DNA of 64,000 nucleotides from a candidate division CPR2 bacterium GW2011_GWC2_39_10. Its GTDB lineage: Bacteria; Patescibacteriota; CPR2. Positions 24,921-45,615 of this stretch are shown in pieces. The notes beneath the pieces are model-generated. The model was not told where the DNA came from and searched no databases. It saw nothing but the letters and a program-made list of their open reading frames with translations. The position numbers and the translations under genes are program-made. The first letter of the stretch is position 1. Each line of letters starts with the position of its first letter. Location of the stretch: positions 24-64,023 of the forward strand of contig LBVV01000006.1 of assembly GCA_000993275.1 (NCBI GenBank), written 5' to 3'.

Positions 24921-25337
24921 ATGGAAACAAAGAATACAAATGCCCTAGAAAAACTTGCCGTATCAATACTTAACACTTTTTTTGTAATTCTGGTATCCTT
25001 TCCTTTCTATTTTGCCTATGGCTTTACTATAAAATATAGAATTATTTTAGTCATTATTTTCCTTTTTTATAACTTATTGTTTGTTTTTACCACCAAAAAT
25101 AGATGCCTGGGAATGATTATTCTAAATATTTATTGGAGGGAAGAATACCCATTAAAAAATCAAGTAATTTACGCCTTACTATATACTTTGAGTTTCTCCA
25201 CTTTAGTTATTTGGATATTCTTTCCGTTCGACCTATTACTCGTAAATTTGGTCTTAATCCAACTACCCTTTGTGTTAAAAACCGGAACAACCTTACACGG
25301 ATATTTAAGCGGAAAAATGTCCGGTTTCAAGCAATAA
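24921..25337 (+). CDS. Hypothetical membrane protein
   Basis: ORF with 4 hydrophobic helices. Confidence 0.3.
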   Translation: METKNTNALEKLAVSILNTFFVILVSFPFYFAYGFTIKYRIILVIIFLFYNLLFVFTTKNRCLGMIILNIYWREEYPLKNQVIYALLYTLSFSTLVIWIFFPFDLLLVNLVLIQLPFVLKTGTTLHGYLSGKMSGFKQ

Positions 25338-25545
25338 TACATCTGTGCTATTATTATTCATATGTTGCCCATTTTTTTAATTATGCTTATTACAATTTTA
25401 TCGATCTCCATGGCCGGGGATTTTATTACCAAGAAAATCGAAAAAAGATCAATTGACATTCCCCTGCCTCTTCCGGTTTCCCAAACTATACAATATCAAA
25501 TTGATAGCATAAGCTTTCTTTTGTTTATTTTGATGATTATTATTT

Positions 25546-26124
25546 TTGGTTTTTCCGGTCTTTATTGGTTTGCTAAGGGGAATATTAATGTCTGATATAA
25601 AGCTAAATTATGCAAAGCTGATATTTATTTTTATTGTTGTCATCAGCATATGGCCGCTTCTAAAAGACCCGTCCGCTTGGATCTTTTTGCATAATGTTGA
25701 CCTGGTTTTTCATGAAGCCGGTCATTTTATATTAATGTTTTTTGGCGAAGCTGTTCATATTTTAGGAGGAACAATTATTCAGCTTGCAGTTCCGATAACC
25801 TGCGCTGTCGCTTTTTATTTAAGAAAAGATTTTTATTCTGTAGGCATTATGTTAATGTGGCTTGGCGAGTCAATTATTTATACCTCTGTTTATATGGGCG
25901 ATGCTGTTAAACGTGTGCTACCTCTTCTTGGAGGAAATACTGACGGCCACGATTTTTATAATTTTTTCCCCATGTTTGGCATCTTAGATTATACAGATTC
26001 AATAGCATTAGTAACCAAAATTATTGGTTATTTAATAATTCTTGGAGGATTTATATTTGCTTTCATTAATATTTTTGACAAAGGTAAAGAAGAAAATTTG
26101 GAAGACATTCTCTTAAAAAGTTAA
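25546..26124 (+). CDS. Hypothetical polytopic membrane protein with HExxH motif (putative membrane metalloprotease)
   Basis: 'FHEAGHFILMF' HEXXH inside a TM region. Confidence 0.35.
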   Translation: MVFPVFIGLLRGILMSDIKLNYAKLIFIFIVVISIWPLLKDPSAWIFLHNVDLVFHEAGHFILMFFGEAVHILGGTIIQLAVPITCAVAFYLRKDFYSVGIMLMWLGESIIYTSVYMGDAVKRVLPLLGGNTDGHDFYNFFPMFGILDYTDSIALVTKIIGYLIILGGFIFAFINIFDKGKEENLEDILLKS

Positions 26125-26272
26125 GCTCGACTAATTAAGGTTTTTGTAGTATAATTAATCGGTCAAAATATGAAATATGGTGCAAACAAGTAGTCATTTT
26201 CATTGGTTTCAACAAAATTTCTGCGATGGTATCAACTGTTTATTGTTTATTGCTAATTGTTTATTAATTTAT

Positions 26273-26348
26273 GCGCCCGTAGCTCAGGGGATAGAGCGGC
26301 TGCCTTCTAAGCAGTAGGTCGGAGGTTCGAATCCTCCCGGGCGTACCA
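26273..26348 (+). tRNA. tRNA-Arg (anticodon TCT)
   Basis: Acceptor GCGCCCG/CGGGCGT, anticodon loop CTTCTAA, GGTTCGAATCC T-loop, CCA encoded. Confidence 0.85.
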
Positions 26349-26612
26349 TTGTTGCATTAAAAATTATCTTTAGACTAAGGCAAACAAAAACAAACGAAAA
26401 GACGAGTAGTGGGATGGATGAGAAGTTTATCCTGAGTGAAATCGAAGGAAATCCTCCCGGGCGTACCAGAATCTAAGCAGTAAGTCGTTCCCTACGAGTC
26501 GCGTGACCGTACGGATCTCTCCTGCTATAATATAAATATGTATCATGTTTATATTTTAAAAAGCTTAAAAGGCGGCAGTTTTATAAAAGAATATTTGAAG
26601 AATATTATTTAA

Positions 26613-26689
<77 letters not shown>

Positions 26690-26791
26690 AGAATAATAAA
26701 CAAGGAACAAAGAACAATTAACAATCAGACGAGAAGGTAAAATAAAAACTAAAATTGTTTATTGCTATTTGTTTATTGTTTGTTAACATCC

Positions 26792-26866
<75 letters not shown>

Positions 26867-27030
26867 GTTTCGATAAGTACTGCATCCAAACTAAAATTAT
26901 TTTAAAGGGTTCTCACCCTGCGGGTGATCGTCCGGAGGACGAGAATCCCGTTACCCGCTCCAAATTTTTAAACCTGTCTTTAATAAATAAGATATCTAAA
27001 ACCGTGCGTAAAAGAAAACTATCCCCCCTA

Positions 27031-27070
27031 TTATCCCGATGTGTCTACTTGGTACACACCGGGTGTGTGG
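27031..27070 (-). repeat. REP-like element copy (reverse orientation: TATCCCGATGTGTCTACTTGGTACACACCGGGTGTGT)
   Basis: Reverse complement of the consensus; 3' of the RCC1-pilin gene. Confidence 0.7.
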
Positions 27071-27087
27071 TTGTGTTCCTGTGTGCT

Positions 27088-28695
27088 CTAAAAAATATCC
27101 AAGCTTCCTGAGCCACTCTCGTCTTTTACTATACCTGGAAAATAACTATTAGTAGTTGAACCGTTACCTAATTGACCATAAGTATTTACCCCCCAAGAAA
27201 TAACTTTTCCATCAGGATAAAAAGATAAAGCGTGACCAGATACTACTATTAATGATACCCCCGACAAACCGATAGAATTAGATTCATTATTTACCCTAAC
27301 CGGCAGCCCTCTGTTAATTGTTGTTCCATCCCCAAGACGCCCGCTTCCATTTGAACCCCAAGCCCAAATATTGGCATCTTGATCTTTAGCCATAGACGTA
27401 CCACCGCTTCCTGCAAAGATTTGCTTTATACCTAATAAATCAATGATTCCGGCACTATCTTTAACGCGAACCGGAAGAACCTTATCTTTGGTGGTGTTAT
27501 CCCCCAACTGGCCGCCGGAATTAGATCCCCAAGCCCAAACGTTCCCATTTGCGTTAAGAGCTAACGAATGCGTGCCGCCTGCAGAAATTGAAACAATATC
27601 GGATAATGATGAGCTGCCGGAACTATCCTTCACCAATACCGGCAAAGAACGATCCGTTTTACTTCCGTCACCAAGCCTACCATCCCAATTATAGCCCCAT
27701 GTCCATATATTACCGCTTGAACTTAAAGCCATAACATGCGTACTTGAAGTAGATATCTTCGTTGTGCCAGTTAAATATCCAGTTCCGTCACTATTTTTAA
27801 TTTTTACAGGCAAATTACTATTATTAGTCGTGCCGTTACCCAATTGGCCTCGACTGTTGCTGCCCCAAGACCACAAATTATTTATACTATCATTTGCGAC
27901 ACAAAATGATACACCGCAAGCAATTTTAACTATATTAGAAAGACTTCCGGTTCCAGATTCATTTTTGACGAGGACGGGAAGTCTAATATCATCTGAATAA
28001 ATACCAACACCCAGTTGACCATTATCATTGTCCCCCCAAGTCCAAACATTGCCATTTGCATCTAATGCCGCTGAAAAAAATAAGCCTCCGGCTACTTCTA
28101 TAATATTCTGAAGATAGCCAGTGTTGTCTGAATTATTGACTTTTTTTGGCAAACTTCTGTCACTAATTGTATTGTCACCCAACTGCCCTTCAGTATTAAA
28201 CCCCCAAGCCAATACATTACCTGCCGATGTTACTGCCAATGAGTGATTGCTTCCGACTGCAATTAAGTTTTTTTCCGATTTACCTCCTCCCGAAGAGGTA
28301 AATAAAATTTCTAAACTTCTGTATATACCCCCTGATTGCCCCTTTGCCGTTATTTTGCCGGTGGTGCTATCCTTAGTAACAACCCAGCAAACACCAGAAT
28401 AACAAGTTTCTGAAGCAATATAATCATCAGACGGATTTAACAGACCTTCCTCCAGCCCTGTCTCTGCCGCGTAGTAAGCCTGTTGGGAACTGGCGGCATC
28501 GCCGGAGGCCTTAATTTCTGTCAGCACTATTTGAGCAATAGAAAGGCCGATTGTTAAAACAATCATGGAGATAATAAGGGAATATAAAAGAATAGAACCT
28601 TTTTGATTTTTTTTGTTTCGGATTTGGAGCTTAAGCAAAATATCCCTCCAATAATATAATACACAAAGAAACGACTCTTGAAAAGTAAACACCAA
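27088..28695 (-). CDS. PilX-like minor pilin N-domain fused to a 7-bladed RCC1-repeat beta-propeller
   Basis: N-terminal TM + 'QQAYYAAETGLEEG' (PilX_N-like); seven repeats of the form '...NxxGQLGDNT...'/'GRLGDGS' (RCC1 signature) throughout the C-terminal 400 aa. Confidence 0.65.
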   Translation of the reverse strand: MVFTFQESFLCVLYYWRDILLKLQIRNKKNQKGSILLYSLIISMIVLTIGLSIAQIVLTEIKASGDAASSQQAYYAAETGLEEGLLNPSDDYIASETCYSGVCWVVTKDSTTGKITAKGQSGGIYRSLEILFTSSGGGKSEKNLIAVGSNHSLAVTSAGNVLAWGFNTEGQLGDNTISDRSLPKKVNNSDNTGYLQNIIEVAGGLFFSAALDANGNVWTWGDNDNGQLGVGIYSDDIRLPVLVKNESGTGSLSNIVKIACGVSFCVANDSINNLWSWGSNSRGQLGNGTTNNSNLPVKIKNSDGTGYLTGTTKISTSSTHVMALSSSGNIWTWGYNWDGRLGDGSKTDRSLPVLVKDSSGSSSLSDIVSISAGGTHSLALNANGNVWAWGSNSGGQLGDNTTKDKVLPVRVKDSAGIIDLLGIKQIFAGSGGTSMAKDQDANIWAWGSNGSGRLGDGTTINRGLPVRVNNESNSIGLSGVSLIVVSGHALSFYPDGKVISWGVNTYGQLGNGSTTNSYFPGIVKDESGSGSLDIF

Positions 28696-28800
28696 GGTTG
28701 AACCCTTTATCCCAACAAAAACTCACTTAGAAAAAATAAAATAGATAACCGTGCTTAACAACCTGTCATCCGTAGGGTGAAAAACCGTTGTTTCTTTATT

Positions 28801-28850
28801 TTATCCCGACGTGTCTACTCAGTACACACCGGGTGTGTACTGAGTTCACA
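28801..28850 (-). repeat. REP-like element copy (reverse orientation) with extended palindrome CTCAGTACACACCGGGTGTGTACTGAG
   Basis: Same element as 27031-27070, same orientation; the two copies bracket the RCC1-pilin gene. Confidence 0.7.
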
Positions 28851-28852
28851 AA

Positions 28853-29275
28853 CTAGGGCAGGTTTATTTTTATTTCTCTTACAACACCGTTAAAAGAACC
28901 TTTGGCGATTAACTGGCCGTTGTCGTTTTTAAAATAATAACAGGAAGATTCTTGACAGTTGTTTTCCTCGTAGCCGTTGGAAAGTGTTCCGGCATTGTGC
29001 ATCTGCAAGGCTTTTTCTAAAGCTGTTTCGGCATTTCTATAGGCCTTGTCGGAATTTACCAAATCACTTGAAGCCCTAGTTTCGGTTAAGGCAATTAGGG
29101 AAATCGCAAGGCCAATAGCAAGCGCAATAACAGAAATAATCATGGCCCAAAGAAGAACCGCTCCTTTATTTTTTTTAAAAAACAAATTTTCTTTTGATTC
29201 TTTATGTCTTGTCGCAAACAAATTATTTTCTCCTATATAATATAATAAACAACAAGCAGGAAAAAGGGAAAGCAA
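28853..29275 (-). CDS. PilX-like minor pilin (N-domain only)
   Basis: TM helix 'AVLLWAMIISVIALAIGLAISLIAL' followed by 'DKAYRNAETALEKAL'. Confidence 0.5.
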   Translation of the reverse strand: MLSLFPACCLLYYIGENNLFATRHKESKENLFFKKNKGAVLLWAMIISVIALAIGLAISLIALTETRASSDLVNSDKAYRNAETALEKALQMHNAGTLSNGYEENNCQESSCYYFKNDNGQLIAKGSFNGVVREIKINLP

Positions 29276-29506
29276 AAAGGGTCGAACTCTTATTCTTCGA
29301 CTCCTCTTAAGGGGGTCCGTCTTGGTGACGAGACAGGCCAGTCTTGGCGCCTAGACAGGCTTCGCTTAAGCGAGACAGGTGGAGAAGTGCCTTTAAGAAG
29401 TTACAAAAATGCAGTTCTCCACCTACTCCGTAGAGTCGAACAATATTAAAGTGCGTAAATCCTGTTAATATTAATTGTTAAAAGTTGAAGGTAAATTTTT
29501 TTTAAA

Positions 29507-30760
29507 TCAGCCCTTAAGGCAACGCACCGAATGACCATGCGCCTTATCGGCTATGTTACGAATGACTGTAAAGTAGTCAGCGTGCAAGAGACGAAACCAA
29601 GCATTAGAAACAGTCGAGGTACTAGACCAATAATCGCCGTGAGGACCCGGATTGCCGAACGTGCCGTCGTCCCAATTGCGATGGCCGGCAAGGAATCCTT
29701 CAAAACCGGAATCGCCGGTAAGCTTTAACTTGGTGCCAGCCGAGCTGCAATCAAATACGCCGACTCTGATATCCGAACAAGTGTTGCCGTCATCTTTTAA
29801 ATAATTTTCCAAGGCGTACCACTCAGAATCCTTAGGAACATGAAACCCGGCGGGACAAATGCCTTGGTCACCTTCTGTGGTGCTGCCATTCATGGCCGTA
29901 TTCCATTGATACAAGCCGCCGTAAATATTGCAGTTCTTTTCATCATTATCATAACAATACTTCTGTCCAATAGCTTGATTAACGGAACCGGCTACCATGG
30001 TACCCACATTCATATTGCACTTCATCCATGTTTGAGGCGTGGGTGATGTATTAATGGTAACGGTGGGAATATAATTTGGGTCATAATTTCTTTGCGACAT
30101 CAAGGTGTTTAAAGAAACTTTTTGTTTGTTTCCTTTGCTATCAGCCTTTTTGCTTTCGGCTGTAATTGTTAGTTTAAAAAAGGGCTGTACCGGGCCGCAT
30201 TCTTTGGCAATTTCGTTAGGATCTATTTCAAAGCTAGTAACAACGGATGAGGTTGAAACAACATTTTGGGCGGCATCCGCATTTTTTTGCATTTTTATAA
30301 TCCCCGCACCTGCTGAACAATTATCGCACCAAAAGGTTATTTTTTCGTCAGTTTGTGTAGTAACAATAATTTTATTGGGATCAGTGTCGGCACTAGAATT
30401 AACGGAAATACTTTTTGCGCCTCTCACTTCTCTTGATATAGCCTCTAGTGCATACCTAACGTCTTGCGTCACCTTCCTGGCACTATTGGCACTTTGGTAA
30501 GTTGACCCTATGGTTATAAACAGCTCGGTCATGGCCACTAAAAGCAAGCTCATAACCCCAATGACAACAATCATTTCGACAAGGGTGAAACCCTTGGAGT
30601 GCACGTAACCCCCGCGTCTTTGCGAGTGAAACGAAGCAATCTCCTCATATTTGCAACAAGATTGCCGCACTCTCCGGCGGCTGCCGGATCGTTCGCAATG
30701 ACAATTGTACGCAGTTACTTTGGGATTGTTTGTTTTATTATGTTTATTTTGCTTTATCAT
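29507..30760 (-). CDS. Type IV pilin-like protein (prepilin N-terminal methylation motif) with C-terminal FISUMP (Fibrobacter succinogenes major paralogous) domain; the true start is probably GTG at ~30607
   Basis: 'KGFTLVEMIVVIGVMSLLLVAMTELF' class-III signal; C-terminus 'GGLYQWNTA...CPAGFHVPKDSEW...GDYWSSTS...HGHSVRCLK' matches the TIGR02145-type domain; the annotated N-terminal 50 aa are encoded by a MITE-like repeat. Confidence 0.65.
   Translation of the reverse strand: MIKQNKHNKTNNPKVTAYNCHCERSGSRRRVRQSCCKYEEIASFHSQRRGGYVHSKGFTLVEMIVVIGVMSLLLVAMTELFITIGSTYQSANSARKVTQDVRYALEAISREVRGAKSISVNSSADTDPNKIIVTTQTDEKITFWCDNCSAGAGIIKMQKNADAAQNVVSTSSVVTSFEIDPNEIAKECGPVQPFFKLTITAESKKADSKGNKQKVSLNTLMSQRNYDPNYIPTVTINTSPTPQTWMKCNMNVGTMVAGSVNQAIGQKYCYDNDEKNCNIYGGLYQWNTAMNGSTTEGDQGICPAGFHVPKDSEWYALENYLKDDGNTCSDIRVGVFDCSSAGTKLKLTGDSGFEGFLAGHRNWDDGTFGNPGPHGDYWSSTSTVSNAWFRLLHADYFTVIRNIADKAHGHSVRCLKG
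30596..30715 (+). repeat. ~115-bp MITE-like element, copy 1 (CGTCTTTGCGAGTGAAACGAAGCAATCTCCT...GATTGCCGCACTCTCCGGCGGCTGCCGGATCGTTCGCAATGACAATTGT)
   Basis: ~90% identical to 57649-57765; partial copy at 62001-62060; lies inside the 5' end of the pilin-FISUMP ORF. Confidence 0.75.
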
Positions 30761-30773
30761 TATTTTCCTTAAT

Positions 30774-32456
30774 TTAGGGGGTGTAAAAACTTAGCGTTGG
30801 CAAAGCCGTTCCGTCGCCAATATAGGTTGCAGCATTCAAACTTACATCCTGCCCCACAATAGCATGTGGTGCAGCCAAGGTGCTGCTTAAATTAGCATTA
30901 AAATACAAATGAGATTTTAGCGATATGAAAATAGCCTTTGTAAAATCATAGGTTTTGCCCGCGGCATTCGCATTGACCGAAAAATTCCTTTTAGGGTCGA
31001 TCTCATCATCATTAATCATTACAATGCGACCAGCCCCGCTAGGATTTCTGACAAAAGCGTTGCCGTTGTCATTATTTATTGTTATTCCATCTTTTGCCAC
31101 CACGACAATGTTTTTGTCCGCAATAGCAGAGTCAAGCTCAATTCCACCCGAAGTTATGGTTATTGAGCCGGTAACATATAAATTACCTTTTAGCTTAAGT
31201 GCCGCGTTATTCTGAATAGTCAAATTGCCTATAACTATGGCATTATTCCAATTAGTATCAGAGCTTATTGTTATGTTGCCGGCGGCAAGAGAAGTTTTTT
31301 TGCCAACATCTGTCAAACCATTGATGTAGTTATAAACCTTGACAGTATCATAGGTAAAAGCTTGGTAACTTGGAACGCCGAGACAATTACCCGTAATACT
31401 TCCGGCCGGATTAACTGTTGCTAGCCCAAATAACGCCGTTCCTTGAATACACGCCGTTGATGCATTATAAAAATTTAATGTTCCGTTAAATGTAGAACGC
31501 ACGCCCCCTCCAGCAGCGCTTGCAGAATATATGTTGCCGTAAAACTCGCCCCCGGCAGTAATAGACAGGTTGTTATTAGAGTAAATACCCCCCTTAACCG
31601 TAACATTATTAGTTGCAGTAAACGTCTGCATGGAAAATACCGTATAATTTAAAGACAGAGAATCTATTAAAGAAATTTCAGGAGGGGCCGTAGTGGCGCA
31701 ATATGCTGTTGCCGTTTTATTTAAAGAATCGGTTAAAACATATTTATACCAAGTTCCGGCAGTTAAAGGGCTATCAGGTTTACTGCCCGAACTTGCTGCA
31801 GCTATGCCGAGCCCTGGAATTACAGTGCCATTCCTTGCAATAGTGGCGCTGCCGTTAGGGGAATTGTAGCCAAGCGTTATAGTTGTATCATCACTGCTAG
31901 AACAAACAAGCGTTGGGTCGCCGGCTACAGCGGCAGTGGCGGCCTTCCAATTTGTTAATGTTTTGCTTTCCTCAACAAAGCCTTTGCCCCAACTTACGTT
32001 GACGGTTATTTTTCTTTTATTGTCGGGATCGGCGGCATCTTTTTCGATCTTAATAGTGCGGGAAAAAGTTATTCCGTTTATGGGCGCTATGGTTTCGGTT
32101 TTATCGGCACTGGTTACGTTAACCATCGTCCACCCCTCGCTTGAATCAAAAGCGTTATCGGGTAATATAAACCAAGGAGAATACGAACTAACAAACAAGC
32201 GGGCATCCCAAGGGCTTTTGTTTTGTTTATAGTTTGTGTCCCTAATATTTTGGGCAATTTCTATAGCTTCCTGGGCTAAAAAGGAAGCTTGGGTTCTTTT
32301 TTTAGTTTCGCTTATGGCAACAATAGATTGCGTAACCAAACCCAAAATTGCCGTAAAAGCAACGGCAATTACTGTGGTTGCAATAATAACTTCTAACAAA
32401 GTAATGCCTTTGCAATTATTTTTTGCCGTTATGAGTTTTAAAATACCCCTCCGCAT
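30774..32456 (-). CDS. Type IV pilin-like protein with large C-terminal beta-helix-like repeat domain (candidate tip/adhesin pilin)
   Basis: 'KGITLLEVIIATTVIAVAFTAILGL' prepilin signal; C-terminal repetitive 'NITISSDTNWNNAIVIGNLTIQNNAALKLKGNLYVTGSITITSGG' (parallel beta-helix-like). Confidence 0.6.
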   Translation of the reverse strand: MRRGILKLITAKNNCKGITLLEVIIATTVIAVAFTAILGLVTQSIVAISETKKRTQASFLAQEAIEIAQNIRDTNYKQNKSPWDARLFVSSYSPWFILPDNAFDSSEGWTMVNVTSADKTETIAPINGITFSRTIKIEKDAADPDNKRKITVNVSWGKGFVEESKTLTNWKAATAAVAGDPTLVCSSSDDTTITLGYNSPNGSATIARNGTVIPGLGIAAASSGSKPDSPLTAGTWYKYVLTDSLNKTATAYCATTAPPEISLIDSLSLNYTVFSMQTFTATNNVTVKGGIYSNNNLSITAGGEFYGNIYSASAAGGGVRSTFNGTLNFYNASTACIQGTALFGLATVNPAGSITGNCLGVPSYQAFTYDTVKVYNYINGLTDVGKKTSLAAGNITISSDTNWNNAIVIGNLTIQNNAALKLKGNLYVTGSITITSGGIELDSAIADKNIVVVAKDGITINNDNGNAFVRNPSGAGRIVMINDDEIDPKRNFSVNANAAGKTYDFTKAIFISLKSHLYFNANLSSTLAAPHAIVGQDVSLNAATYIGDGTALPTLSFYTP

Positions 32457-32772
32457 ATAAATATTGTGCCCTTGTTATAATGTTAAGTCAAGTAAAAATA
32501 GAAATAGCTAAATCCTAAACCACGTGCACTTTTTAAAATTGATTTATTATGGGCTCTAAATTTGTCATTCCAAACTTGATTTGGAATCCATACTCTCTGG
32601 ATCCCGGATCATGTCCGGGATGACAATTCTGGGAAGTTTTGTGAGCGGTCCCAAAGATGGGAGAAAAGGAATGCAACTTTTGAGTTTTTTTATTTCTCCT
32701 TTCCTTTTATTCTATATTCAATATTCCCATTCCAGCCTCTAAATTCTAAACTCTATATTCTTCCTTCCAAGT

Positions 32773-33513
32773 CTAGCTGCAGCCGACGGTTTCTGTGGGG
32801 CTTGTCCATACCTCGCCCGTTTGCATATTGATGTTAATTTTCTTAAACTTATTTTGGGATGTATCTTGTAAAACAAAAATGATTTTTTTGTAAATGGTGC
32901 CGTCGACCGGGATAATTGAGATATTATCATCGGTATAATAAATTTTTCTTTCGCTGGGCAGTTCGGCGACTTTAAACACAATACCTTTAAACGAAGTGCC
33001 GCTGTTAACGAGCAGACAAGTTGAATCGTCGGCATCAGAAGGGCGACATCTATAAATACACCCGAAATTAATATTGTGGATATTTTTGTGAACCGTGTAG
33101 TCTGCCGGGGATCCTTGATCCCGAAAAGAATATTTAGTTTGGGTGTCATCAGGAGAAGAAAAACGATCTTGGTTTGCAGGAAGGACTGTGCCTACTTTAT
33201 CCACAAAATGACTGTAATACCATCTCTTATAACCAGGAAGGCTATCCAACCCCTCAATCATAAAACCGTAACCGTTAACATCGGTAGCCGCGCTTAAAGC
33301 TGTTGACGGTTTTGGGGCCAGGGAGTTTTCCCTTGCTTTAACAATTTCCGACTGCACAAGTTCGGCGGCCAGTTCCAAATCCGTGTCTTTTTTAATATTA
33401 CCCCATCTTATGACCGCTATGCCCGACAAAATGCCGATAATACCGACAACAATGATAAGTTCAATTAAGGTAAGCCCCTTAGATTGTAAACATAAGCTTT
33501 TTTTGCCCTTCAT
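32773..33513 (-). CDS. Type IV pilin / pseudopilin (GspG-like N-terminus)
   Basis: 'SKGLTLIELIIVVGIIGILSGIAVIRW' prepilin cleavage/methylation motif. Confidence 0.7.
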   Translation of the reverse strand: MKGKKSLCLQSKGLTLIELIIVVGIIGILSGIAVIRWGNIKKDTDLELAAELVQSEIVKARENSLAPKPSTALSAATDVNGYGFMIEGLDSLPGYKRWYYSHFVDKVGTVLPANQDRFSSPDDTQTKYSFRDQGSPADYTVHKNIHNINFGCIYRCRPSDADDSTCLLVNSGTSFKGIVFKVAELPSERKIYYTDDNISIIPVDGTIYKKIIFVLQDTSQNKFKKININMQTGEVWTSPTETVGCS

Positions 33514-33558
33514 GAATTTATTATAATCCCGTTAGAGATCGCGGGCAAGAAGAAATAT

Positions 33559-33598
33559 TGCACACACCCGGTGTGTACTGAATTGACACATCGGGATA
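33559..33598 (+). repeat. REP element, left flank of the RAYT transposase gene (CACACACCCGGTGTGTACTGAATTGACACATCGGGATAAG)
   Basis: Exact inverted partner at 34289-34328. Confidence 0.8.
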
Positions 33599-33604
33599 AG
33601 AGCT

Positions 33605-34270
33605 TTATTCGCCAACCAAGTGTTTAACTTTTTCCAATTCTTTTTGATAATCCGCTTGATCAAAAACAAATTCTTTGTACTGATCTTTTGTCTTAAAATG
33701 GCCCAATACGTCCGTGGTATTAATAAACTTATTTTGCTTTTGCCCCATATAATAGCCAAAAGATGTCCATTCGTATTTTGGGAGTTCATTTATTCTTATT
33801 ATATTTGAAGATACCGGATTTAGATGGATATATCTCGAAACATGAACAAGCTGCTCATCCGTTTCAATCGGAACTGCTTTAAAAACCGACTGAAATACCG
33901 TCCCGACTCTATCGTATTTAACATTAAAATATTTTCCGTAACTATTTTGAAGATTTCGCATAAAAATTTGTGCTCCACCCTCTTTTAGTTGTTTTAGGAG
34001 CAAATGAAAATGATTAGGCATTAAGCCGAAAGATAAAATATCAACTAAAGGCTCATTCTTATTGAGCTTTTCCAGAAATTCTTCTTTATCTTTAAAAGAC
34101 ATTCGATTGTAATGAGAAAACCTTATCGATGGATTGCACCTAACGAAAGCTGCAACATCTAAAAATCTTTCATAGTCTCTTTGGCCTTTAAAAATAGGAG
34201 ATCGGTTTACGCCCCTGTTGATAACATGATAAATACCTCTATCCACAAAAATTGTTTTTCTATACGGCAT
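33605..34270 (-). CDS. tnpA: IS200/IS605-family HUH tyrosine transposase (TnpA / REP-associated tyrosine transposase, RAYT-like)
   Basis: HUH motif 'LMPNHFHLLL', catalytic Tyr region 'VSRYIHLNPV', ~220 aa; flanked by inverted REP copies. Confidence 0.8.
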   Translation of the reverse strand: MPYRKTIFVDRGIYHVINRGVNRSPIFKGQRDYERFLDVAAFVRCNPSIRFSHYNRMSFKDKEEFLEKLNKNEPLVDILSFGLMPNHFHLLLKQLKEGGAQIFMRNLQNSYGKYFNVKYDRVGTVFQSVFKAVPIETDEQLVHVSRYIHLNPVSSNIIRINELPKYEWTSFGYYMGQKQNKFINTTDVLGHFKTKDQYKEFVFDQADYQKELEKVKHLVGE

Positions 34271-34288
34271 GTTAATATAATAGTTGTG

Positions 34289-34328
34289 TTATCCCGATGT
34301 GTCAATTCAGTACACACCGGGTGTGTGT
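34289..34328 (-). repeat. REP element, right flank of the RAYT gene (inverted)
   Basis: Reverse complement of 33559-33598. Confidence 0.8.
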
Positions 34329-34349
34329 AAAACGGTAAAACGGGAATTA

Positions 34350-34391: not shown

Positions 34392-34925
34392 TTAGCTGCT
34401 AACATTAGTCACTGGTGGATTAGCTGCAGTTACCTCAGCAAGAGGATTAGTGTTTTGACTAGGCCGAATCACATAATTACCGTTTGCATCTGTTACATCG
34501 AGTTGGTAATAGTTTGTGCCGCCTAATGGATCAACTGGATAGCTAGTTCCTCCAGCTAACCATGCGCTTGGCATTCTTACGGTTGTTTCGGAAGTGCCTT
34601 TAAATACACAATCTGTAGCAGTCGCACAAACAGCAGCTCCGTTTTGTAAGGGTGATACAGCATTAAGATCAAACCATACTGTTGCAGCACCAGCACCGGT
34701 AGTAGGCTGAAGTAATGTGCCTCCAGTAACTTTATACTGCTCTATGGCGTTCCTAATCTGATTCATATCACTCGATCTTCTAGTGTTTCTAGCATCTCGG
34801 CTACTATTTCCGATCCTAACAATTATTAACCCCGCCAAAATACCAATAATGGCGATGACGACGATAAGCTCAATAAGGGTGAAGCCGCTGGAACCGCCGC
34901 CCCTTAATTTTTTTAATTTTTTCAT
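34392..34925 (-). CDS. Type IV pilin (major-pilin-like, PilA/ComGC-type)
   Basis: 'GGGSSGFTLIELIVVIAIIGILAGLIIV' class-III signal with Glu+5; 177 aa; strong terminator downstream. Confidence 0.75.
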   Translation of the reverse strand: MKKLKKLRGGGSSGFTLIELIVVIAIIGILAGLIIVRIGNSSRDARNTRRSSDMNQIRNAIEQYKVTGGTLLQPTTGAGAATVWFDLNAVSPLQNGAAVCATATDCVFKGTSETTVRMPSAWLAGGTSYPVDPLGGTNYYQLDVTDANGNYVIRPSQNTNPLAEVTAANPPVTNVSS

Positions 34926-35480
34926 TAACCCTCCTTAAAAAATTTTCGTTTTTATATTAAACAATTGTCTTACATATAATTATTGCCCATACTATGACAG
35001 TTGTAAATAGGAAAAATAAAATTTTTTTAATTTCTAATTACTCTAATTGACCTAATTTCTAAAAATCCTATCTTTGCTTGCCATAATATAAACATAATAA
35101 GATTTCATAAACCGATTATAAAAGATTCCCGCCTTCGCCCGTCTTGGTCCGCCTTGGTGACGAGACAGGCCAGTCTTGGCGCTTAGACAGGCGAGTACCA
35201 AACGAGTGATAAGTGGGGGGGCGGAATGAAAAAAGCGGAATGAAAAAATTGATAATTGAGAATTTTTGACATTTGAAATTTATTATTTGACATTTAGTAA
35301 ATAGATTCCGGGTCAATTGATTGTATTTTTTTAATGAATGCCCGGAATGACAGTTTCAAGACAGTCTGAATATATGGATAAGCACCCTCCCCTAGCGCCT
35401 CCTCCTCCAAAGGCGGACAGGCACAGCAAGGGAAAGGAATGATGCAATTGTTTCCTGGTTACTGGTTTCTGTTTCCTAGC

Positions 35481-36698
35481 TTATTGATTTTTCACTGCAG
35501 ACGTCAAGTCGTATAACGGTACAACGATACCGGCTACCACCAGGGCTACCGCCACGCCCATTGCTACTATTAGAAATGGTTCTAGCAGTTTTGAGAAATT
35601 ATCAACTATTTCGTCAACTTCTTTTTCGTAAAAAGAAGCCAGCTTGCCCATAACTTCGTCTAAGGCGCCAGTTTTTTCCCCTACTTGAATCATCTGAATT
35701 ACTATGCGGGGAAATTTTTCCGAGGATCTCAGGGCCGTAGAAAGGTTCTCGCCATTTTTGACTTTATCCAGTGAATCCATCAATTCCTTTTCGTAGTGAA
35801 TGTTCCCTATTGTTCTCGAGGTAAGTTCTAAAACGGCCACAATTGACAAACCACTTTCCAGGAGCGTAGTGGCGGTTCTGGCAAACCTTGCCATATATAT
35901 TTTACGCATTAGTCCGCCAAAAACCGGAATTTTTACAATAAAACTTGCCCAAAAATTCTGACCGGTTCTGGTGGTGTTTATAAAATACCTAAAGAGCCAA
36001 ATAGCACCGACGGAAGCTATAAGTAAAATAAATTTATATTTAATCATAAAGTCGCTAAGACCGAATAGGACCCTGGTAAGCATTGGTAATTTAGCCCCGG
36101 AGGTTTCAAAAATGGCTTTCATTTTTGGGATTAAAAATATTGTCAACAGAACCATAACGCTAATTAAAGCCGTTAAAATAAAGGCCGGATAAATCATGGC
36201 GCCCCGGGTTTTAACGGCCATTTCATAATCCTTTTCCATATGATCGGCAAGTTTAAGTAAAATTTCATCCAGTTTGCCGGATTCTTCGCCGGCCGCAATC
36301 ATATTTACAAAAATGTCCGTAAAAAGGTTGGGAAATTGCCTTAACGACTCGGCAAAAGTGGTACCGGATGCCACGTCTCTTGCCACTACTTTTATAATTT
36401 GATTAAAACGCTTGTTGCTTTGCTGCAGCGCAAGAGTTTCTAGGGCATCTACTATGGGAAGACCGGCGTTTATCATGGTGGCCAGTTCTCTTGAAAACAT
36501 AACCTTGTCTTTTTGCTTTATCGGGGTAAACCTGTTTTCCAAATTTTCCAAAGTCATGGAACCGGATTTATTGCCGACATCCGTAGTTATAAGTCCGTGC
36601 TCACGTAAAATAGAAACCACTTCCGCCTCGCTTCCGGCCTCCATGGATCCCACTTTAAGATTCCCTTTATTATCCCTGGCTTTATATAAAAATTCCAT
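35481..36698 (-). CDS. pilC: Type IV pilus assembly platform protein PilC (GspF family), copy A
   Basis: Two T2SSF domains; 405 aa; three TM helices in the typical positions. Confidence 0.85.
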   Translation of the reverse strand: MEFLYKARDNKGNLKVGSMEAGSEAEVVSILREHGLITTDVGNKSGSMTLENLENRFTPIKQKDKVMFSRELATMINAGLPIVDALETLALQQSNKRFNQIIKVVARDVASGTTFAESLRQFPNLFTDIFVNMIAAGEESGKLDEILLKLADHMEKDYEMAVKTRGAMIYPAFILTALISVMVLLTIFLIPKMKAIFETSGAKLPMLTRVLFGLSDFMIKYKFILLIASVGAIWLFRYFINTTRTGQNFWASFIVKIPVFGGLMRKIYMARFARTATTLLESGLSIVAVLELTSRTIGNIHYEKELMDSLDKVKNGENLSTALRSSEKFPRIVIQMIQVGEKTGALDEVMGKLASFYEKEVDEIVDNFSKLLEPFLIVAMGVAVALVVAGIVVPLYDLTSAVKNQ

Positions 36699-36712
36699 AA
36701 ATAACTAAAAAA

Positions 36713-36985
36713 TTAATTTACTAAATTCTGTTTCCAATCGCCGTATTTCTCTTCATCCTGCTTTCTGGAAACCGCCCCCTTAAACTCGTCAAGTTTTCTC
36801 AAGTTCGCCTCCACTTGAGCGGTATTTGTTGAAGGCAAGATTACCTCGGCTGGTGCTTCTTTAAATTTTTTATAAACGGGGCTCGCTAAAATTGCCACTG
36901 CCGCCACGGCAGCCAGTAAAGCAAATAAAACGCTAAGCCTTTTTGCGGTTGCATTCATTAAAACCTCTTTGCCTCTATAACCCAA
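36713..36985 (-). CDS. Hypothetical small membrane-anchored protein (possible PilP-like accessory protein)
   Basis: Single N-terminal TM 'LSVLFALLAAVAAVAILA'; position after pilO; overlaps pilO by 28 nt. Confidence 0.3.
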   Translation of the reverse strand: MGYRGKEVLMNATAKRLSVLFALLAAVAAVAILASPVYKKFKEAPAEVILPSTNTAQVEANLRKLDEFKGAVSRKQDEEKYGDWKQNLVN

Positions 36986-37573
36986 CTTACGTTAATATAA
37001 TCTTTGTTTTCCGCACCACCACGTTCCCTATCCAACTTTACTTCTTTTAACTCTAAAAATCTTTTATTATTGCCGACATTATCCATAAAATTGGTTATCT
37101 TATAATAATTAGCTTCTTCAACCCTAAATGTTCCGTTGTAAAAATAGGATTTAGCGGTTGCATCTTGGGTGCCCGTAGATGTTGGGGCGGAACCCGACAT
37201 ACCGTGGGTTGAAGCTAAATATTGATAATCGGCCTGGTAAGAAAAAAGCACAATTTCTCTGGAATCGCCAACATCAATAAGCCCACTATCTTCCATAATT
37301 TTATCAACCTGATTTGCCACTTCCTCCGGCTTATCATTTGGCGGTATTGCTTCTTCTATGCCGGCAAACAAATCTTGAAATGTTTTTTGATCATTTTCAT
37401 ACTTTTTTAAATTTTCTACTTTTTCATTAAGCGCTTTTAATTCTCCCTTTTTTCATATTTTTATAAATTGGACCCGTACCTAAATAGGCACCGGCAACGG
37501 CAACAATAAAAATAAGTAAACTTAGCGAGTTATAATATTTATCGGGTATCTTGGACAATATATCTTTTCCCAT
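36958..37573 (-). CDS. pilO: PilO-like pilus assembly protein, apparently frameshifted in a T6/A6 homopolymer (37448-37453)
   Basis: The N-terminal part (ATG at 37573, overlapping the pilN stop as TAATG) encodes a TM helix 'LSLLIFIVAVAGAYL' and stops after 48 codons. Deleting one A in the run fuses it in frame to ORF 36958-37371 (coiled coil + C-terminal domain). Confidence 0.5.
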
Positions 37574-38196
37574 TAGAAAGCCTGCTTATTATATTTAGCC
37601 GTTATTTGAAAATTAATCCAATCCTCTTTGTCCATTGTTTCAATTTTATTGACCGTTACGGAATCGAACAATTTGGTAGTTACCGTTTGTTCCTTATCTT
37701 GAACCTTAATTGTCTTTTTTGTATCGAGACCATCTAGAAGCGCCGCATATGTCCGCGGATGATTAACGCGCATATCGCTTGTTCCAACCAAAACGATAGT
37801 ATTATTATCATCAAAAATTTGGAAACCATCGATATGGATTTGATCTTTTGGAGTTTTGTCGGTAATTTTTTTTATTAAATAGTAATAATTGACATGATTA
37901 TCCAAAGCCATGGTGGCTATATCGGCTTTTTGGCTCATTTTTTGAAGATCCAGCTCTAAACCTTTCATGTTCGCATATTTCGTATTTATTGTTTCGTAGT
38001 CAGCGTCTTGCTTGTTTTTTTCGTTTTGCAGATAAAGCTGAAAGCCATAAAGCCCGCCAAAATATAAAGCCAAGGTAGAAAGTGCAACAACTATTATAAA
38101 AATAGGCGAAAAATAGGCTTTTGCTAATTTTGAACTTATACCGGGCCCGGATACTTTTGGGGCGCTGTCTGACTGTCCGACCAAATTAATGGGCAA
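37573..38196 (-). CDS. pilN: PilN-like pilus assembly protein (TM + coiled coil)
   Basis: Cytoplasmic N-terminus, TM 'IFIIVVALSTLALYFGGLYGF', coiled-coil periplasmic region; follows pilM. Confidence 0.5.
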   Translation of the reverse strand: MPINLVGQSDSAPKVSGPGISSKLAKAYFSPIFIIVVALSTLALYFGGLYGFQLYLQNEKNKQDADYETINTKYANMKGLELDLQKMSQKADIATMALDNHVNYYYLIKKITDKTPKDQIHIDGFQIFDDNNTIVLVGTSDMRVNHPRTYAALLDGLDTKKTIKVQDKEQTVTTKLFDSVTVNKIETMDKEDWINFQITAKYNKQAF

Positions 38197-38228
38197 GAAA
38201 CCCTCCTTCTTCTATATATAAGATACAC

Positions 38229-39296
38229 TTACAAATAAGATAAGGCAAGACCAACTGCCACCGAAAATTTAGAAGCAACCGGCACAAGCTTTTCGCTGGG
38301 CAGTCTGGAGCAATCTATGTTGGCCCAAGGATTAACTTGGCTTACCTTAATTGACAATTCATGGGCAAAAAAATCATTAATTCTCGGCACCAAGGATGAT
38401 CCTCCGCTTAAAATTAAGCCTTCAAAAGGAATATTTACAAAATTCGGATCTTCTTTTATTTTTATTATGCCTTCAACAATTGGGTTTAATATTTTTTTAA
38501 TTGCAAAGAAGATTTTACCGTCAAATTTGCTTGGCTCCATGCCTATTTCCATTTTGGTTTTTATAGCTTCTTCCGGCTTCATGTTAAATTCCTGCATTAA
38601 AACGTTTGTTATTGCCAGCCCGCCTATGCTTATGGTCTCGGCATGTTTTAGAGTCCCTTCGCTGACAATCATAACTGTAGAGTAATTATGTCCCATGTGG
38701 ATAAATATAAAACTTTTACTCATTCCCTTAAAAAGATTCATGAGGCTCAAAACTTCTATATCGAACCCCATTGGACTAACTCCGCCGGCAGAAGCTATTT
38801 GATTATATTTTTCGGCAACATACTGAGGAAAATACCCCAAAAAGATTTCTCTTGCACCGTCTTTTCCGGTTTTTAAAGTTTGCCAGTAGCTTAAGCTATC
38901 CTCGCCTTCCTTTGCCGCCCTATATTTAATTTCGTATTTCATGGCAAACTGAAGCTCGTCATCATCCATGGGCGGAAACGTAAAAATATCCCAACCGGAA
39001 CTGTTTGATGGAATTGAAATAACTGCCTGATTGGCCGATATTTTGGCTGCCCCAAGTAACTGGCCGACAGCTTGGCCAAGCTGATTGTTAGCTTGCGGCG
39101 AATCGCTAAGTAGCATGCCGGGCGGCAGATTATATTCAACCGCGGACTGCAAAAAAACAGCTTCTTTCTCCTTGGAAAGCTGGACTATTTTTATTGAGGT
39201 TGAGCCTATATCCAAACCAAAGTAATCTTTCAAAAGATTCCCTCCATATATATAGTAACCAGGAATCAGGAAACAGTAAACAGGAAAAAACCCCAT
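38229..39296 (-). CDS. pilM: Type IV pilus assembly ATPase-fold protein PilM (actin-like), copy A
   Basis: 'FGLDIGSTSIKIVQL' phosphate-1 motif and 'LSGGSS' phosphate-2; 355 aa. Confidence 0.75.
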   Translation of the reverse strand: MGFFPVYCFLIPGYYIYGGNLLKDYFGLDIGSTSIKIVQLSKEKEAVFLQSAVEYNLPPGMLLSDSPQANNQLGQAVGQLLGAAKISANQAVISIPSNSSGWDIFTFPPMDDDELQFAMKYEIKYRAAKEGEDSLSYWQTLKTGKDGAREIFLGYFPQYVAEKYNQIASAGGVSPMGFDIEVLSLMNLFKGMSKSFIFIHMGHNYSTVMIVSEGTLKHAETISIGGLAITNVLMQEFNMKPEEAIKTKMEIGMEPSKFDGKIFFAIKKILNPIVEGIIKIKEDPNFVNIPFEGLILSGGSSLVPRINDFFAHELSIKVSQVNPWANIDCSRLPSEKLVPVASKFSVAVGLALSYL

Positions 39297-39363
39297 CCCT
39301 CCCCTTCAAAGGGGAGGGAGCAGGAGGGAGGGGTTTTTAAATGCCAAATTACAAAGAAAGAAG

Positions 39364-39470
39364 AAAGAATATAGTATAAAGTATTAAGAATGGGAATACA
39401 GAATATTAGAATATTTTTTGCTTTATTCCGTACTCTAAATTCTTATACTTAATTCTTGATTCTTCTATTT
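39364..39470 (+). repeat. AT-rich ~110-bp intergenic repeat, copy 1 (GAATATAGTATAAAG...GGGAATACAGAATATTAGAATATTTTTTGCTTTATTCCGTACTCTAAATTCTTATACTTAATTC)
   Basis: ~90% identical to 39901-40020 (direct); partial inverted copy at 52681-52735. Confidence 0.7.
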
Positions 39471-39520
39471 TAGGATTTAGGATTTATTTAGAAATTCGTA
39501 ATTAGATATTAGGATTTAAA

Positions 39521-39548
39521 AAATCCGGCTATCGCCGGATTTTTTTAC
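39521..39548 (-). terminator. Bidirectional rho-independent terminator at the 3' end of hup
   Basis: ATCCGGC-TAT-CGCCGGAT hairpin flanked by A-run and T-run. Confidence 0.55.
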
Positions 39549-39817
39549 CTAACTGCTTCTTTTAGTCTTTTGCCGGCCCTAAACCTTGGCATCTTCATTT
39601 CCGGAATGTTGATATAGTCTCCGCTTTGGGGATTTCGGCCGCGTCTGGCAGCGCGTTTTCCAAGATCAAAGGTGCCGAAACCGGTTATGGCAACTTTTTC
39701 TCCCCTAACGATATTTTCGGTTACAATTTTAGTAAATTTGCCAAGAAACATCTCGACATTCTTTTTGGACATGCCGGTCTCTTTGGATAGCGTGTCAACA
39801 AACTGTTGTTTAGTCAT
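39545..39817 (-). CDS. hup: DNA-binding protein HU (histone-like, HU/IHF family)
   Basis: 'MTKQQFVDTLSKETGMSKK...' with 'GFGTFDLGKRAARRGRNPQSGDYINIPEMKMPRFRAGKRLKEAV' HU arm and signature. Confidence 0.85.
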   Translation of the reverse strand: MTKQQFVDTLSKETGMSKKNVEMFLGKFTKIVTENIVRGEKVAITGFGTFDLGKRAARRGRNPQSGDYINIPEMKMPRFRAGKRLKEAVR

Positions 39818-39900
39818 AAATACCCCTTATTTATTTAACATAATAATATAGATAATTATTGCATAAGAATTTTATTTTTTCAAGAGAGATTTGGTGGTAA

Positions 39901-40020
39901 AAAAGAATATAGAATATAGTATAAAGCCCCAAGAATGGGAATATAGAATATTAGAATATTTTTTGCTTTATTCCGTATTCTAAATTCTTATACTTAATTC
40001 ATAATTCATTATTCTTAATT
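39901..40020 (+). repeat. AT-rich ~110-bp intergenic repeat, copy 2 (direct repeat of 39364-39470; the pair flanks hup)
   Basis: Direct sequence comparison. Confidence 0.7.
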
Positions 40021-40105
40021 CTAAGATTTGGATTTGTTTAGTATTTTCCGCCCGAGGCGGATCAGCCTTTGGCTGAAGAAATTAGGATTTAAGATTTAGA
40101 GATTC

Positions 40106-40900: not shown

Positions 40901-41003
40901 ATTTCTTCCTTTTTCTTATGATACTCTTAAAGCCGTACATGATTCAATCTTTTGAAATCAGAGTTAATTAATTCTTGATTTAATTCTTAATTCATAATTC
41001 GTT

Positions 41004-42566: not shown

Positions 42567-42922
42567 TGGCTAAATTACAAAAAATTACCATGGAGTAGTG
42601 AAGCGATTTTTAGTTTTCTTTATATAGGGTAGCCTAAGGTCTGACAATGTTATTACTTTTATTATTACACCTCAAATTTAACATTAAAGAGCAGAAAAAT
42701 CAAGACGAAAGTCTTTGACAGAAAACCCTTCGAAAAGCTCAGGGCTATAGCAAGAAACAAACAAATAGCTAAAATTTTTGAATTAAGAATAACGAATTAT
42801 GAATCAAGTATGGGAATTCAGAATGATTGAACAATTGTAAGTTGAAATTTGAAAATCCCTTCCGCTCAAGGCGGACAAGCATGGAGGGAAATAATGGGGT
42901 GGGGTCGCTATTTGTTTATTGT

Positions 42923-45040: not shown

Positions 45041-45615
45041 ATAAAAAGAATAACACGACAGAATTTAAAATTACAAATTTTAAATTCTAAATCCTAATTT
45101 CTAATATCTAATATCTAAACAAAATCCAATTTCAAAATCCAAAAATTTAGAATATTAGAAAGTGCAAATCTCGTCGAATTGGTTGAACTTGAAAATTCCT
45201 AGCACTTTGAAGCAAATGTAAAAAAGCATTTGCTCTTTTTTTTAATAACAATCATTTTTCCCTTCCTCGGCCTCCGCAGGAATAGATGAGTATCAACTGA
45301 ACGTACATCTCAAAAAGTTGTGTTTGAGGAGGTTACGACGAGTTCGACTTTTTGAGAGTAAGAGAAGGCAGATGCGATTCTATGACGAGGACCAGCCGAA
45401 AGTTTTGGTTCTTTCCAAAAAGAACAAAAAATCCTTTAAGATTTTTATAGTTCTCATATTCCTACGGATCCGTCCGAACGAGCCGTATTGCCGGATCCCT
45501 CCCGCCGCCAGAGGCGGTCAAGAGGGCGGGCAGGCGGGCAGGCAAACGATTGTATTTTCTAAAGGAATGTCCGGAATGATGGAAAAATGAAACTACTGTC
45601 TTTTAAATTTTGACT

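Follow-up and report, generated by a model that had tools for sequence, protein, structure and literature searches.

The GspH-I-J-K and FimU-PilV-W-X subunits prime the assembly of pilus-type filaments and remain at the filament tip, where K-type subunits of the GspK/PilX type, which normally lack Glu5, act as caps. PilY1/PilC of Pseudomonas, Neisseria, and Myxococcus is a non-pilin protein with a type I signal and a large seven-bladed propeller, and is presumed to be located at the tip. In the IncI PilV shufflon and in pilE/pilS, a conserved pilin N terminus is joined to alternative C-terminal parts that set binding specificity. The present study concerns a type IV pilus operon and, within it, the set of minor-pilin genes at positions 27088-33513 on the minus strand of a 64,000-nucleotide stretch of DNA (hereafter, the window) from the candidate division CPR2 bacterium GW2011_GWC2_39_10 (assembly GCA_000993275.1, contig LBVV01000006.1, positions 24 to 64,023 of the forward strand, which make up essentially the whole contig). 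The RuvB protein encoded in the window is identical to KKQ94964.1 of this bacterium. A preliminary description of the window had drawn attention to these genes on account of RCC1 and FISUMP domains that appeared to be fused to pilins.

The type IV pilin signature is represented by IPR012902/PF07963/TIGR02532, of which PF07963 is N_methyl, and the FISUMP domain is, we assume, represented by IPR011871. Raynaud et al. (2021, PNAS, PMC8179133) surveyed InterPro for modular pilins and found more than 1,200 of them in 264 architectures. These proteins, such as PilB (vWA) and PilC (lectin) of Streptococcus sanguinis, consist of a small pilin module and a bulky functional module that is foreign to pilus biology. 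The combination IPR012902-IPR011871 was the fifth commonest architecture (40 proteins), several IPR012902-RCC1 forms were recorded, and many examples were from bacteria of the candidate phyla radiation (CPR). Pilins with large inserted domains, namely, GspK (alpha-domain) and Thermus ComZ (beta-solenoid), were also discussed in that study (PMC8179133). The closest described system is that of Nanosynbacter lyticus TM7x (Saccharibacteria), which has two pilus systems (bioRxiv 10.1101/2024.11.25.624915, PMC11623550). PilX2 of its thin pilus, T4P-2, has a non-canonical signal peptide, a lollipop-shaped N terminus, and a seven-bladed RCC1 propeller, and structurally resembles fucose-binding lectins. 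The deletion of PilX2 halved host binding, which equals the effect of losing the major pilin, and filaments and competence were retained (PMC11623550). The preliminary description considered the combination of modules in the window not to correspond to a described pilus type. However, N_methyl-IPR011871 and N_methyl-RCC1 proteins had already been catalogued and TM7x PilX2 had been characterized; therefore, the design itself is known, and the window does not contain a new kind of machine or pilus type.

On the minus strand, the operon reads PilM, three small membrane-type open reading frames (ORFs), PilC, a 177-aa pilin, a REP-associated tyrosine transposase (RAYT; REP, repetitive extragenic palindrome), and five minor-pilin-type genes (Table 1). 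The last five correspond to the consecutive minus-strand ORFs at 27088-28695, 28853-29275, 29507-30760, 30774-32456, and 32773-33513, the coordinates of which were confirmed; the likely starts shorten three of them (the RCC1, small PilX, and FISUMP genes). A canonical class III signal (a short basic leader with Gly-1, followed by a hydrophobic stretch of approximately 20 residues that includes Glu5) was present in the 246-aa, 560-aa, FISUMP, and 177-aa proteins, with N_methyl scores of 23.5-28.5 bits (cutoff, 21.2 bits). Thus, the proposal that all five genes begin with prepilin or PilX-type N termini was borne out by N_methyl for the 417-, 560-, and 246-aa ORFs; however, the PilX-type pair lacks Glu5, and the only PilX_N match within it remained below the cutoff. 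Family matches, most of which were sub-threshold, pointed to GspH for the 246-aa protein, ComGE/XpsI/PilV/GspI for the 560-aa protein, ComGF/GspJ for the FISUMP protein, and ComGG for the small PilX. The order of the genes is that conserved for GspH-I-J-K, FimU-PilV-W-X, and ComGD-E-F-G. All of the genes are under purifying selection (ratio of non-synonymous to synonymous substitution rates [dN/dS] of 0.13-0.46 against a 90-95% identical relative, described below), which indicates that they are functional coding genes. Large additional modules had been ascribed to all five; they are present in three, while the 246-aa GspH-like protein (dN/dS of 0.18) and the small PilX are plain, with no recognizable extra domain in profile searches. 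No secretin, prepilin peptidase (Peptidase_A24), or retraction ATPase was detected among the window ORFs scanned.

We consider this region likely to represent the minor-pilin set of a secretin-less CPR2 type IV pilus, the I-like, J-like, and second K-like subunits of which would be modular and display binding modules at the filament tip. The H-like subunit and one K-like subunit would be plain. The FISUMP, 560-aa, and RCC1 proteins are each composed of a small pilin module and a bulky foreign module, as in the modular pilins of Raynaud et al. (PMC8179133). However, three modular subunits in one H-I-J-K set were not described in that survey, and its search criterion would miss the RCC1 protein of the window because this protein has no detectable N_methyl motif.

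The gene order and the best, albeit weak, family matches also fit ComGC-GD-GE-GF-GG. Accordingly, the operon may build a pseudopilus of the secretion type or a Com-like competence pilus, in which the modules would capture DNA, scavenge nutrients, or handle substrates instead of attaching to a host cell. Natural competence and an inability to make nucleotides are ascribed to CPR bacteria (PMC11623550), and the beta-solenoid module of Thermus ComZ is tied to DNA uptake (PMC8179133). However, TM7x mutants of the RCC1-bearing pilus lost host binding and showed wild-type competence (PMC11623550), propeller and FISUMP (CLec2-class) domains are regarded in the literature as likely to bind ligands or glycans rather than DNA, and neither comEA nor comEC adjoins the operon in the window. 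We consider a role of this kind to be unlikely and favor tip-displayed binding modules.

Translation of the RCC1 gene most probably initiates at TTG 28638, which follows a GGAGGG Shine-Dalgarno motif, and yields a protein of 516 aa that begins with MLKLQIRNKKNQKG/SILLY (a slash follows Gly-1 here and below). The seven RCC1 repeats noted in the preliminary description were verified by PF00415 (E = 7.7e-78) and WD40_RLD (262 bits; cutoff, 150 bits), and the best sequence matches in PDB were HERC2 and UVR8. The AlphaFold model, which was based on a 40-sequence alignment, comprises a helix (residues 14-60), four strands (residues 76-111), and seven four-stranded blades with a predicted local distance difference test score (pLDDT) above 90. 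Foldseek matched the propeller to UVR8 (template modeling score of 0.88), HERC2, and RCC1, and the top 50 fold matches of the protein were all RCC1-type or related propellers. A search with the full-length protein retrieved generic RCC1 proteins only and was uninformative on the fusion; the N-terminal module was searched alone. Since the first 115 residues match the small PilX encoded by the adjacent gene (39% identity, E = 2e-19), the fusion may be regarded as a plain K-type pilin module to which a propeller has been appended. The small PilX gene most likely starts at TTG 29218. The putative processing sites of the two proteins, QKG/SILLY and NKG/AVLLW, retain Gly-1 without Glu5 and without an N_methyl match, and judging from these sequences both fit the non-canonical GspK/PilX/ComGG class. 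PilX_N (PF14341) scored 19.3 bits in the RCC1 protein (cutoff, 25.5 bits), and the Pfam search revealed no PilX_N match in the small PilX.

These N-terminal features bear on another explanation, according to which the RCC1 protein (and perhaps also the remaining large proteins) would be a cell-surface protein rather than a pilus subunit, anchored in the membrane by an N-terminal helix that is not cleaved, with its gene simply located beside pilin genes. The absence of Glu5, the sub-threshold PilX_N score, and the low model confidence of the pilin head are consistent with this explanation, as are a separate promoter-like site and the long REP-containing spacer in front of the RCC1 gene. A scan for promoters and terminators yielded 31 hits against 22.5 +/- 4.6 in shuffled sequences, which is not clearly above background and provides a weak hint of separate promoters. 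However, the first 115 residues are clearly paralogous to the adjacent K-position pilin, the proteins of the window and of relatives share Gly-1 and a short basic leader, and the class III signals of the FISUMP and 560-aa proteins are fully canonical. Moreover, the lack of Glu5 is normal for GspK/PilX caps, and TM7x PilX2 has the same features together with a role in host binding. We regard anchored surface proteins as quite improbable, and the RCC1 protein is more readily read as a pilin of the tip set.

The RCC1 protein resembles TM7x PilX2 in four descriptive features (signal, lollipop, propeller, and pilin locus), the two having been compared by description only. In both organisms, the RCC1 subunit is encoded together with major and minor pilins, and there are two pilus loci. 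Unlike TM7x, the present organism belongs to the CPR2 phylum, its RCC1 gene follows a plain PilX paralogue, and its I- and J-class subunits are also modular. The RCC1 protein further resembles GspK as a K-class cap without Glu5 that carries an extra domain, and PilY1/PilC as a seven-bladed propeller encoded last in a minor-pilin operon; however, unlike PilY1/PilC, it has its own pilin-type N terminus. Homology to PilY1 was rejected: Pfam detected no match to the PilY1/PilC family (IPR008707, PF05567) at E = 0.01 or better, and PilY1 was outside the top 50 structural matches. The protein is analogous to the PilY1 family without belonging to it. Its position corresponds to that of PilY1 in classical operons, and its role is probably the same, although it would be attached through its own pilin module. 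The RCC1 module of the window shares 37-42% identity with non-pilin bacterial RCC1 proteins and 30-34% with pilin-borne RCC1 modules. Since it is nearer to the former, RCC1 propellers appear to have been grafted onto pilins more than once, independently.

For the FISUMP gene, GTG 30604 is the most likely start codon, which gives the N terminus MHSKG/FTLVEM. The additional 52 residues at the N terminus of its ORF (...CHCERSGSRRRVRQSCC...) are spurious and represent a translated intergenic palindromic repeat. Copies of this repeat family were found at 30616-30703, between the 560-aa and FISUMP genes, and at 57660-57767 and 62002-62063. The assignment of the C-terminal domain in the preliminary description was upheld by PF09603 (E = 1.7e-25; 90.8 bits; cutoff, 33.9 bits; model positions 6-187 of 187) and TIGR02145 (E = 6.7e-27; 95.3 bits; cutoff, 41.65 bits; model positions 13-175 of 176). 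N_methyl scored 25.6 bits in this protein, and the matches to ComGF and GspJ were weak. The gene is also present in the relative described below, with dN/dS of 0.46 that is based on few substitutions. In the literature, Fib_succ_major is placed with the C-type-lectin-fold class of diversified ligand-binding proteins. We rejected the candidate that the FISUMP gene is the target of a diversity-generating retroelement: there was no reverse transcriptase among the ORFs scanned, including all of those of at least 300 aa, and the 3' end of the gene had no repeat partner within the stretch at 24-40 kb. The grouping of FISUMP with the lectin fold, together with the role of TM7x PilX2 in host binding, leads us to consider attachment to a partner cell or surface via tip-displayed modules as the best-supported function, by analogy with these systems.

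The 560-aa protein consists of a pilin module (residues 1-171), a stretch that may be FN3-like judging from its sequence (residues approximately 172-260), and approximately 300 residues with weak beta-helix signals. Its signal motif is CKG/ITLLE, and it matched ComGE (E = 1.2e-8), XpsI, PilV, and GspI. A HMMER search of 1.84 billion representatives found 1,580 relatives of the pilin module, mostly ordinary proteins of 160-190 aa, and all of those among the matches listed cover residues 12-171 only. When 40 of the relatives were tested, 34 matched PilV and 28 matched ComGE. Two large protein searches found the C-terminal approximately 390 residues only in a 90%-identical strain variant and a fragment, and these residues had no sequence match in PDB. 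The preliminary description had assigned a beta-helix of approximately 450 aa to this protein. Weak, sub-threshold signals in approximately 300 residues agree with part of this assignment (Bactofilin, E = 0.0084, 16.8 bits, cutoff 27.9 bits; LbH_EIF2B, E = 0.14); however, the remainder falls to the pilin module and to a linker that may be FN3-like. The AlphaFold model was poor (mean pLDDT of 40.7), with an alignment of two sequences only; residues 390-520 alone reached 59-84 and showed periodic short strands. The module may possibly be beta-helical. It is also weakly similar (E = 3e-4) to residues 225-293, a DUF7305-like region, of a 388-aa PilX encoded elsewhere in the window. The dN/dS of the whole gene was 0.30, with 0.71 for residues 172-260 and 0.16-0.25 for the rest of the protein. 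Compared with the 90%-identical variant (P0121), the protein shows a cluster of small indels and substitutions at residues 199-227 (31776-31862), within the possibly FN3-like linker. In other proteins, the PilV-like module is fused to RCC1 (P0127, P0131, and P0159), to an Lcl_C-like domain (P0208), or to another repeat domain (P0148). BLASTP detected no significant similarity of the Lcl_C-like end of P0208 to the FISUMP domain (E = 1.1).

The relatives of the window indicated that the module at the K position has been replaced, and thus the expectation of module variation between strains at this locus proved correct. The same RCC1 gene occurs in a Rifle contig (L011), which matches the window at 98% identity over 25307-29234. 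A sister metagenome-assembled genome (CG2_30_37_16) is 83-91% identical at the nucleotide level over 35456-45245; its contig stops approximately 390 nt past PilC, short of the minor-pilin region. The relative hereafter called S2 is represented by the Crystal Geyser contigs L012, L021/L023, and L024. Counterparts of the RAYT, GspH-like, FISUMP, and small PilX genes, together with a 563-aa gene, occur in S2 with 91-95% identity to the window; the small PilX protein is 94% identical (dN/dS of 0.13). On L024, the GspH-like, 563-aa, FISUMP, and small PilX genes are succeeded by a fusion gene. The S2 fusion gene shares the promoter region and the first 180 nt with the window (90.6% identity to 28627-28448), and its remainder is unrelated. 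In place of the RCC1 propeller, the S2 fusion protein (618-626 aa) has BNR_4-like repeats (26.7 bits; cutoff, 27.3 bits). The similarity between the window and S2 breaks after approximately codon 61 of the fusion gene and resumes at the downstream REP. Since the S2 fusion protein ends with ...KGEFNQVQRSVEFTL, which corresponds to the last hairpin motif of the PilX head in the window proteins, the BNR-like propeller appears to be inserted within the pilin head rather than appended to it. This arrangement recalls the inserted domains of GspK and ComZ, although the extra domains are unrelated and neither sequence nor fold yielded a match.

A third variant (L019/L020; 398 aa) has the same N-terminal segment and a glycine-rich module, and is located at another locus; in the sister genome, the glycine-rich variant gene is split into ORFs of 190 and 172 aa. 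The N-terminal segment conserved among the fusion genes is NKKNQKGSILLYSLIISMIVL. All three variants are followed on the 3' side by the same REP-containing module, from which we infer that the variable segment extends from the end of the alpha1-coding stretch to the REP. Recombination between these borders may have mediated the replacement. A shufflon or silent-cassette mechanism was rejected because the window ORFs scanned included neither a reverse transcriptase nor an Rci-type recombinase, and silent cassettes and template repeats were absent from the stretch scanned at 24-40 kb. Unlike the PilV shufflon and pilE/pilS, the variation in question lies between genomes and is not programmed within one.

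Two mobile sequences were observed in S2. In part of the S2 population, an insertion sequence with inverted ends and an apparent TTTCC target duplication lies approximately 50 nt upstream of the small PilX start (L023 1-102 and 8935-9059), and an IstB (IS21-type) gene is present between the REP of the fusion gene and the RAYT (L021/L023 2912-3679). Both give the path through L023 a circular appearance, for which insertion-sequence copies in part of the population are probably a better explanation than a circular element.

The window contains five REP matches, against none expected by chance. Within the pilin operon, the RAYT separates the major pilin gene from the minor-pilin genes, and its REP_Tyr_transpos match (E = 3.5e-10; 39.9 bits) is below the equivalog cutoff of 80 bits. 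Its inverted REP arms are 42 nt long and 98% complementary. Together with the dispersed copies, the RAYT and its inverted REPs constitute a REPtron. The two REPs around the RCC1 gene are in the same orientation, as had been described, and are genuine. The upstream REP-containing spacer (approximately 165 nt) is missing at this position in S2 and is located downstream of the S2 fusion gene instead. In sequence comparisons, the REP upstream of the RCC1 gene thus appears as an insertion relative to S2 and not as a common border, and the left break lies inside the gene; therefore, the expectation of the preliminary description that the two direct REPs delimit an exchangeable cassette was not supported. 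To our knowledge, the demonstrated activity of RAYTs is on the REPs themselves, and movement of intervening genes by RAYTs is not known. Consequently, although the direct REPs that bracket the RCC1 gene, the apparently intact RAYT with inverted REPs 5 kb away in the same operon, and the similarity to S2 (L012) that halts exactly at the outer REP (34330) are compatible with a discrete cassette exchanged as a unit by REP/RAYT activity, we consider this explanation to be very improbable, given that the similarity to S2 runs through the promoter and the first approximately 61 codons, breaks inside the coding sequence, and does not have the upstream REP spacer as its border.

We propose the following explanation for the operon as the minor-pilin set of a pilus with a modular tip. 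Each modular subunit would be anchored in the tip complex by a small pilin head together with the assembly helix at its N terminus, and would carry a grafted module. The grafted module would be possibly beta-helical in the I-like subunit, without relatives beyond near-identical strains, FISUMP in the J-like subunit, and the RCC1 propeller in the second K-like subunit. These modules would be displayed at the tip and bind surface ligands, most likely glycans or proteins of host cells. The proposal of the preliminary description that these proteins are tip adhesins for host attachment agrees with the experiments on TM7x PilX2; the tip location and the adhesin role in the present organism are inferred from this likeness. 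The module at the K position differs between close relatives through replacement of the segment from the end of the alpha1-coding stretch to the downstream REP.

Several observations weigh against this explanation. The subunit classes lean on sub-threshold matches that are largely driven by the N-terminal helix, the PilX_N score of the RCC1 protein is below the cutoff, and the pilin head of this protein was modeled at pLDDT of 40-66. Furthermore, a prepilin peptidase, a retraction ATPase, and a dedicated assembly ATPase are all missing beside the operon, and the sole PilB in the window belongs to the second pilus locus (46888-55026).

A bolder version of this explanation is that the tip is a fast-turnover combinatorial device for host recognition, which displays up to three modules and the K-module of which (RCC1, BNR-like, or glycine-rich) is exchanged between lineages by recombination between the alpha1 segment and the REP. 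We put this forward tentatively and regard it as doubtful at present. If it is true, the combinatorial tip would resemble the swapping of receptor-binding proteins in phage tail fibres, and the module content would track host range.

Table 1. Coordinates of the pilus genes and associated features in the window.
Feature	Coordinates	Strand	Details
PilX/GspK-like non-canonical minor pilin (residues 1-115) with seven-bladed RCC1 propeller (residues ~125-516)	27088..28638	-	ORF to 28695
Small PilX/GspK/ComGG-like minor pilin, 121 aa, MFATRHKESKENLFFKKNKG/AVLLW	28853..29218	-	paralogue of the N terminus of the RCC1 protein; weak ComGG match; ORF to 29275
PilW/GspJ/ComGF-like canonical prepilin with C-terminal FISUMP domain, 365 aa	29507..30604	-	ORF to 30760 (417 aa)
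PilV/GspI/ComGE-like canonical prepilin (residues 1-171) with ~390-residue module, 560 aa, KG/ITLLEV	30774..32456	-	N_methyl 23.5 bits
GspH/FimU/ComGD-like canonical prepilin, 246 aa, SKG/LTLIEL	32773..33513	-	N_methyl 23.6 bits; GspH 7.3e-6
RAYT transposase gene (33605-34270) with inverted REPs (33558-33599/34289-34330)	33558..34330	-	Y1_Tnp 33.8 bits (cutoff 23)
Candidate major pilin, 177 aa, GSSG/FTLIEL	34392..34925	-	N_methyl 28.5 bits; GspG/ComGC-like N terminus
PilC/GspF platform protein	35481..36698	-	T2SSF 2.1e-63; GspF 1.8e-106; exact match KKQ94939.1
PilM and three small membrane-type ORFs in PilN/PilO positions	36713..39296	-	PilM 38229-39296; PilM_2 8.8e-21
REP copy directly past the stop of the RCC1 fusion gene	27032..27068	+	exact REP pattern match
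REP copy between the small PilX and RCC1 fusion genes	28802..28838	+	REP pattern match
Second, complete-looking type IV pilus locus	46888-55026	+	PilB, second PilC, four pilin-type genes, PilM/N/O

The three small ORFs next to PilM are named after PilN/PilO by position alone and have no family match. The pilin-type genes of the second locus encode proteins of 132, 139, 193, and 388 aa, and the 388-aa protein matches PilX_N (23.7 bits) and, weakly, DUF7305. Just upstream of PilM, a gene for an HU-like DNA-binding protein (39545-39817) is flanked by a 102-nt direct repeat (39354-39455 and 39899-40000; 91% identity). Two lamin-tail domains (E = 2.3e-33) mark a 417-aa protein, encoded a few kb upstream of the pilus operon (43787-45040, minus strand), as a likely surface protein.

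Other repeats were observed around the pilin genes. A 47-nt GC-rich direct repeat (96% identity) has two copies in the window (29314-29360 and 35146-35192), which are upstream of the small PilX and major pilin on the coding strand. Their folding z-scores were -1.9 and -2.7 relative to shuffled sequences, and Rfam had no match to the repeat. In the sister genome, the stretch immediately 5' of the small PilX copy on the coding strand (29343-29380) is found again (L013 155-193), upstream of the PilX-like gene. The tRNA-Gly gene (26792-26866) ends in 20 nt (26847-26866) that are repeated exactly at 26943-26962, 96 nt downstream and approximately 70 nt away from the REP on the 3' side of the RCC1 gene; this repeat looks like a scar of integration or excision at a tRNA 3' end. 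Elsewhere in the window, two paralogous histidine kinases with an N-terminal seven-transmembrane region (499-2676 and 5710-7899, minus strand) and a GGDEF-domain protein (63158-63754) represent a signaling capacity above that expected for a reduced CPR genome.

CPR bacteria are thought to depend on attachment to other cells, and their choice of partner is largely unexplained. TM7x is the single experimentally studied case and points to a propeller-bearing minor pilin; the same design is present here in a distant CPR lineage. The present results go beyond the literature consulted in three respects: three modular subunits per tip set, the approximately 390-residue I-class module, and the replacement of the K-module between close relatives with mapped borders. 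The propeller-pilin design is thereby extended to three subunits of what would be one tip complex, and natural operon variants differ only in the displayed module. These genes are candidate determinants of host specificity in uncultivated groundwater CPR bacteria and may allow shifts in host range to be tracked in metagenomes.

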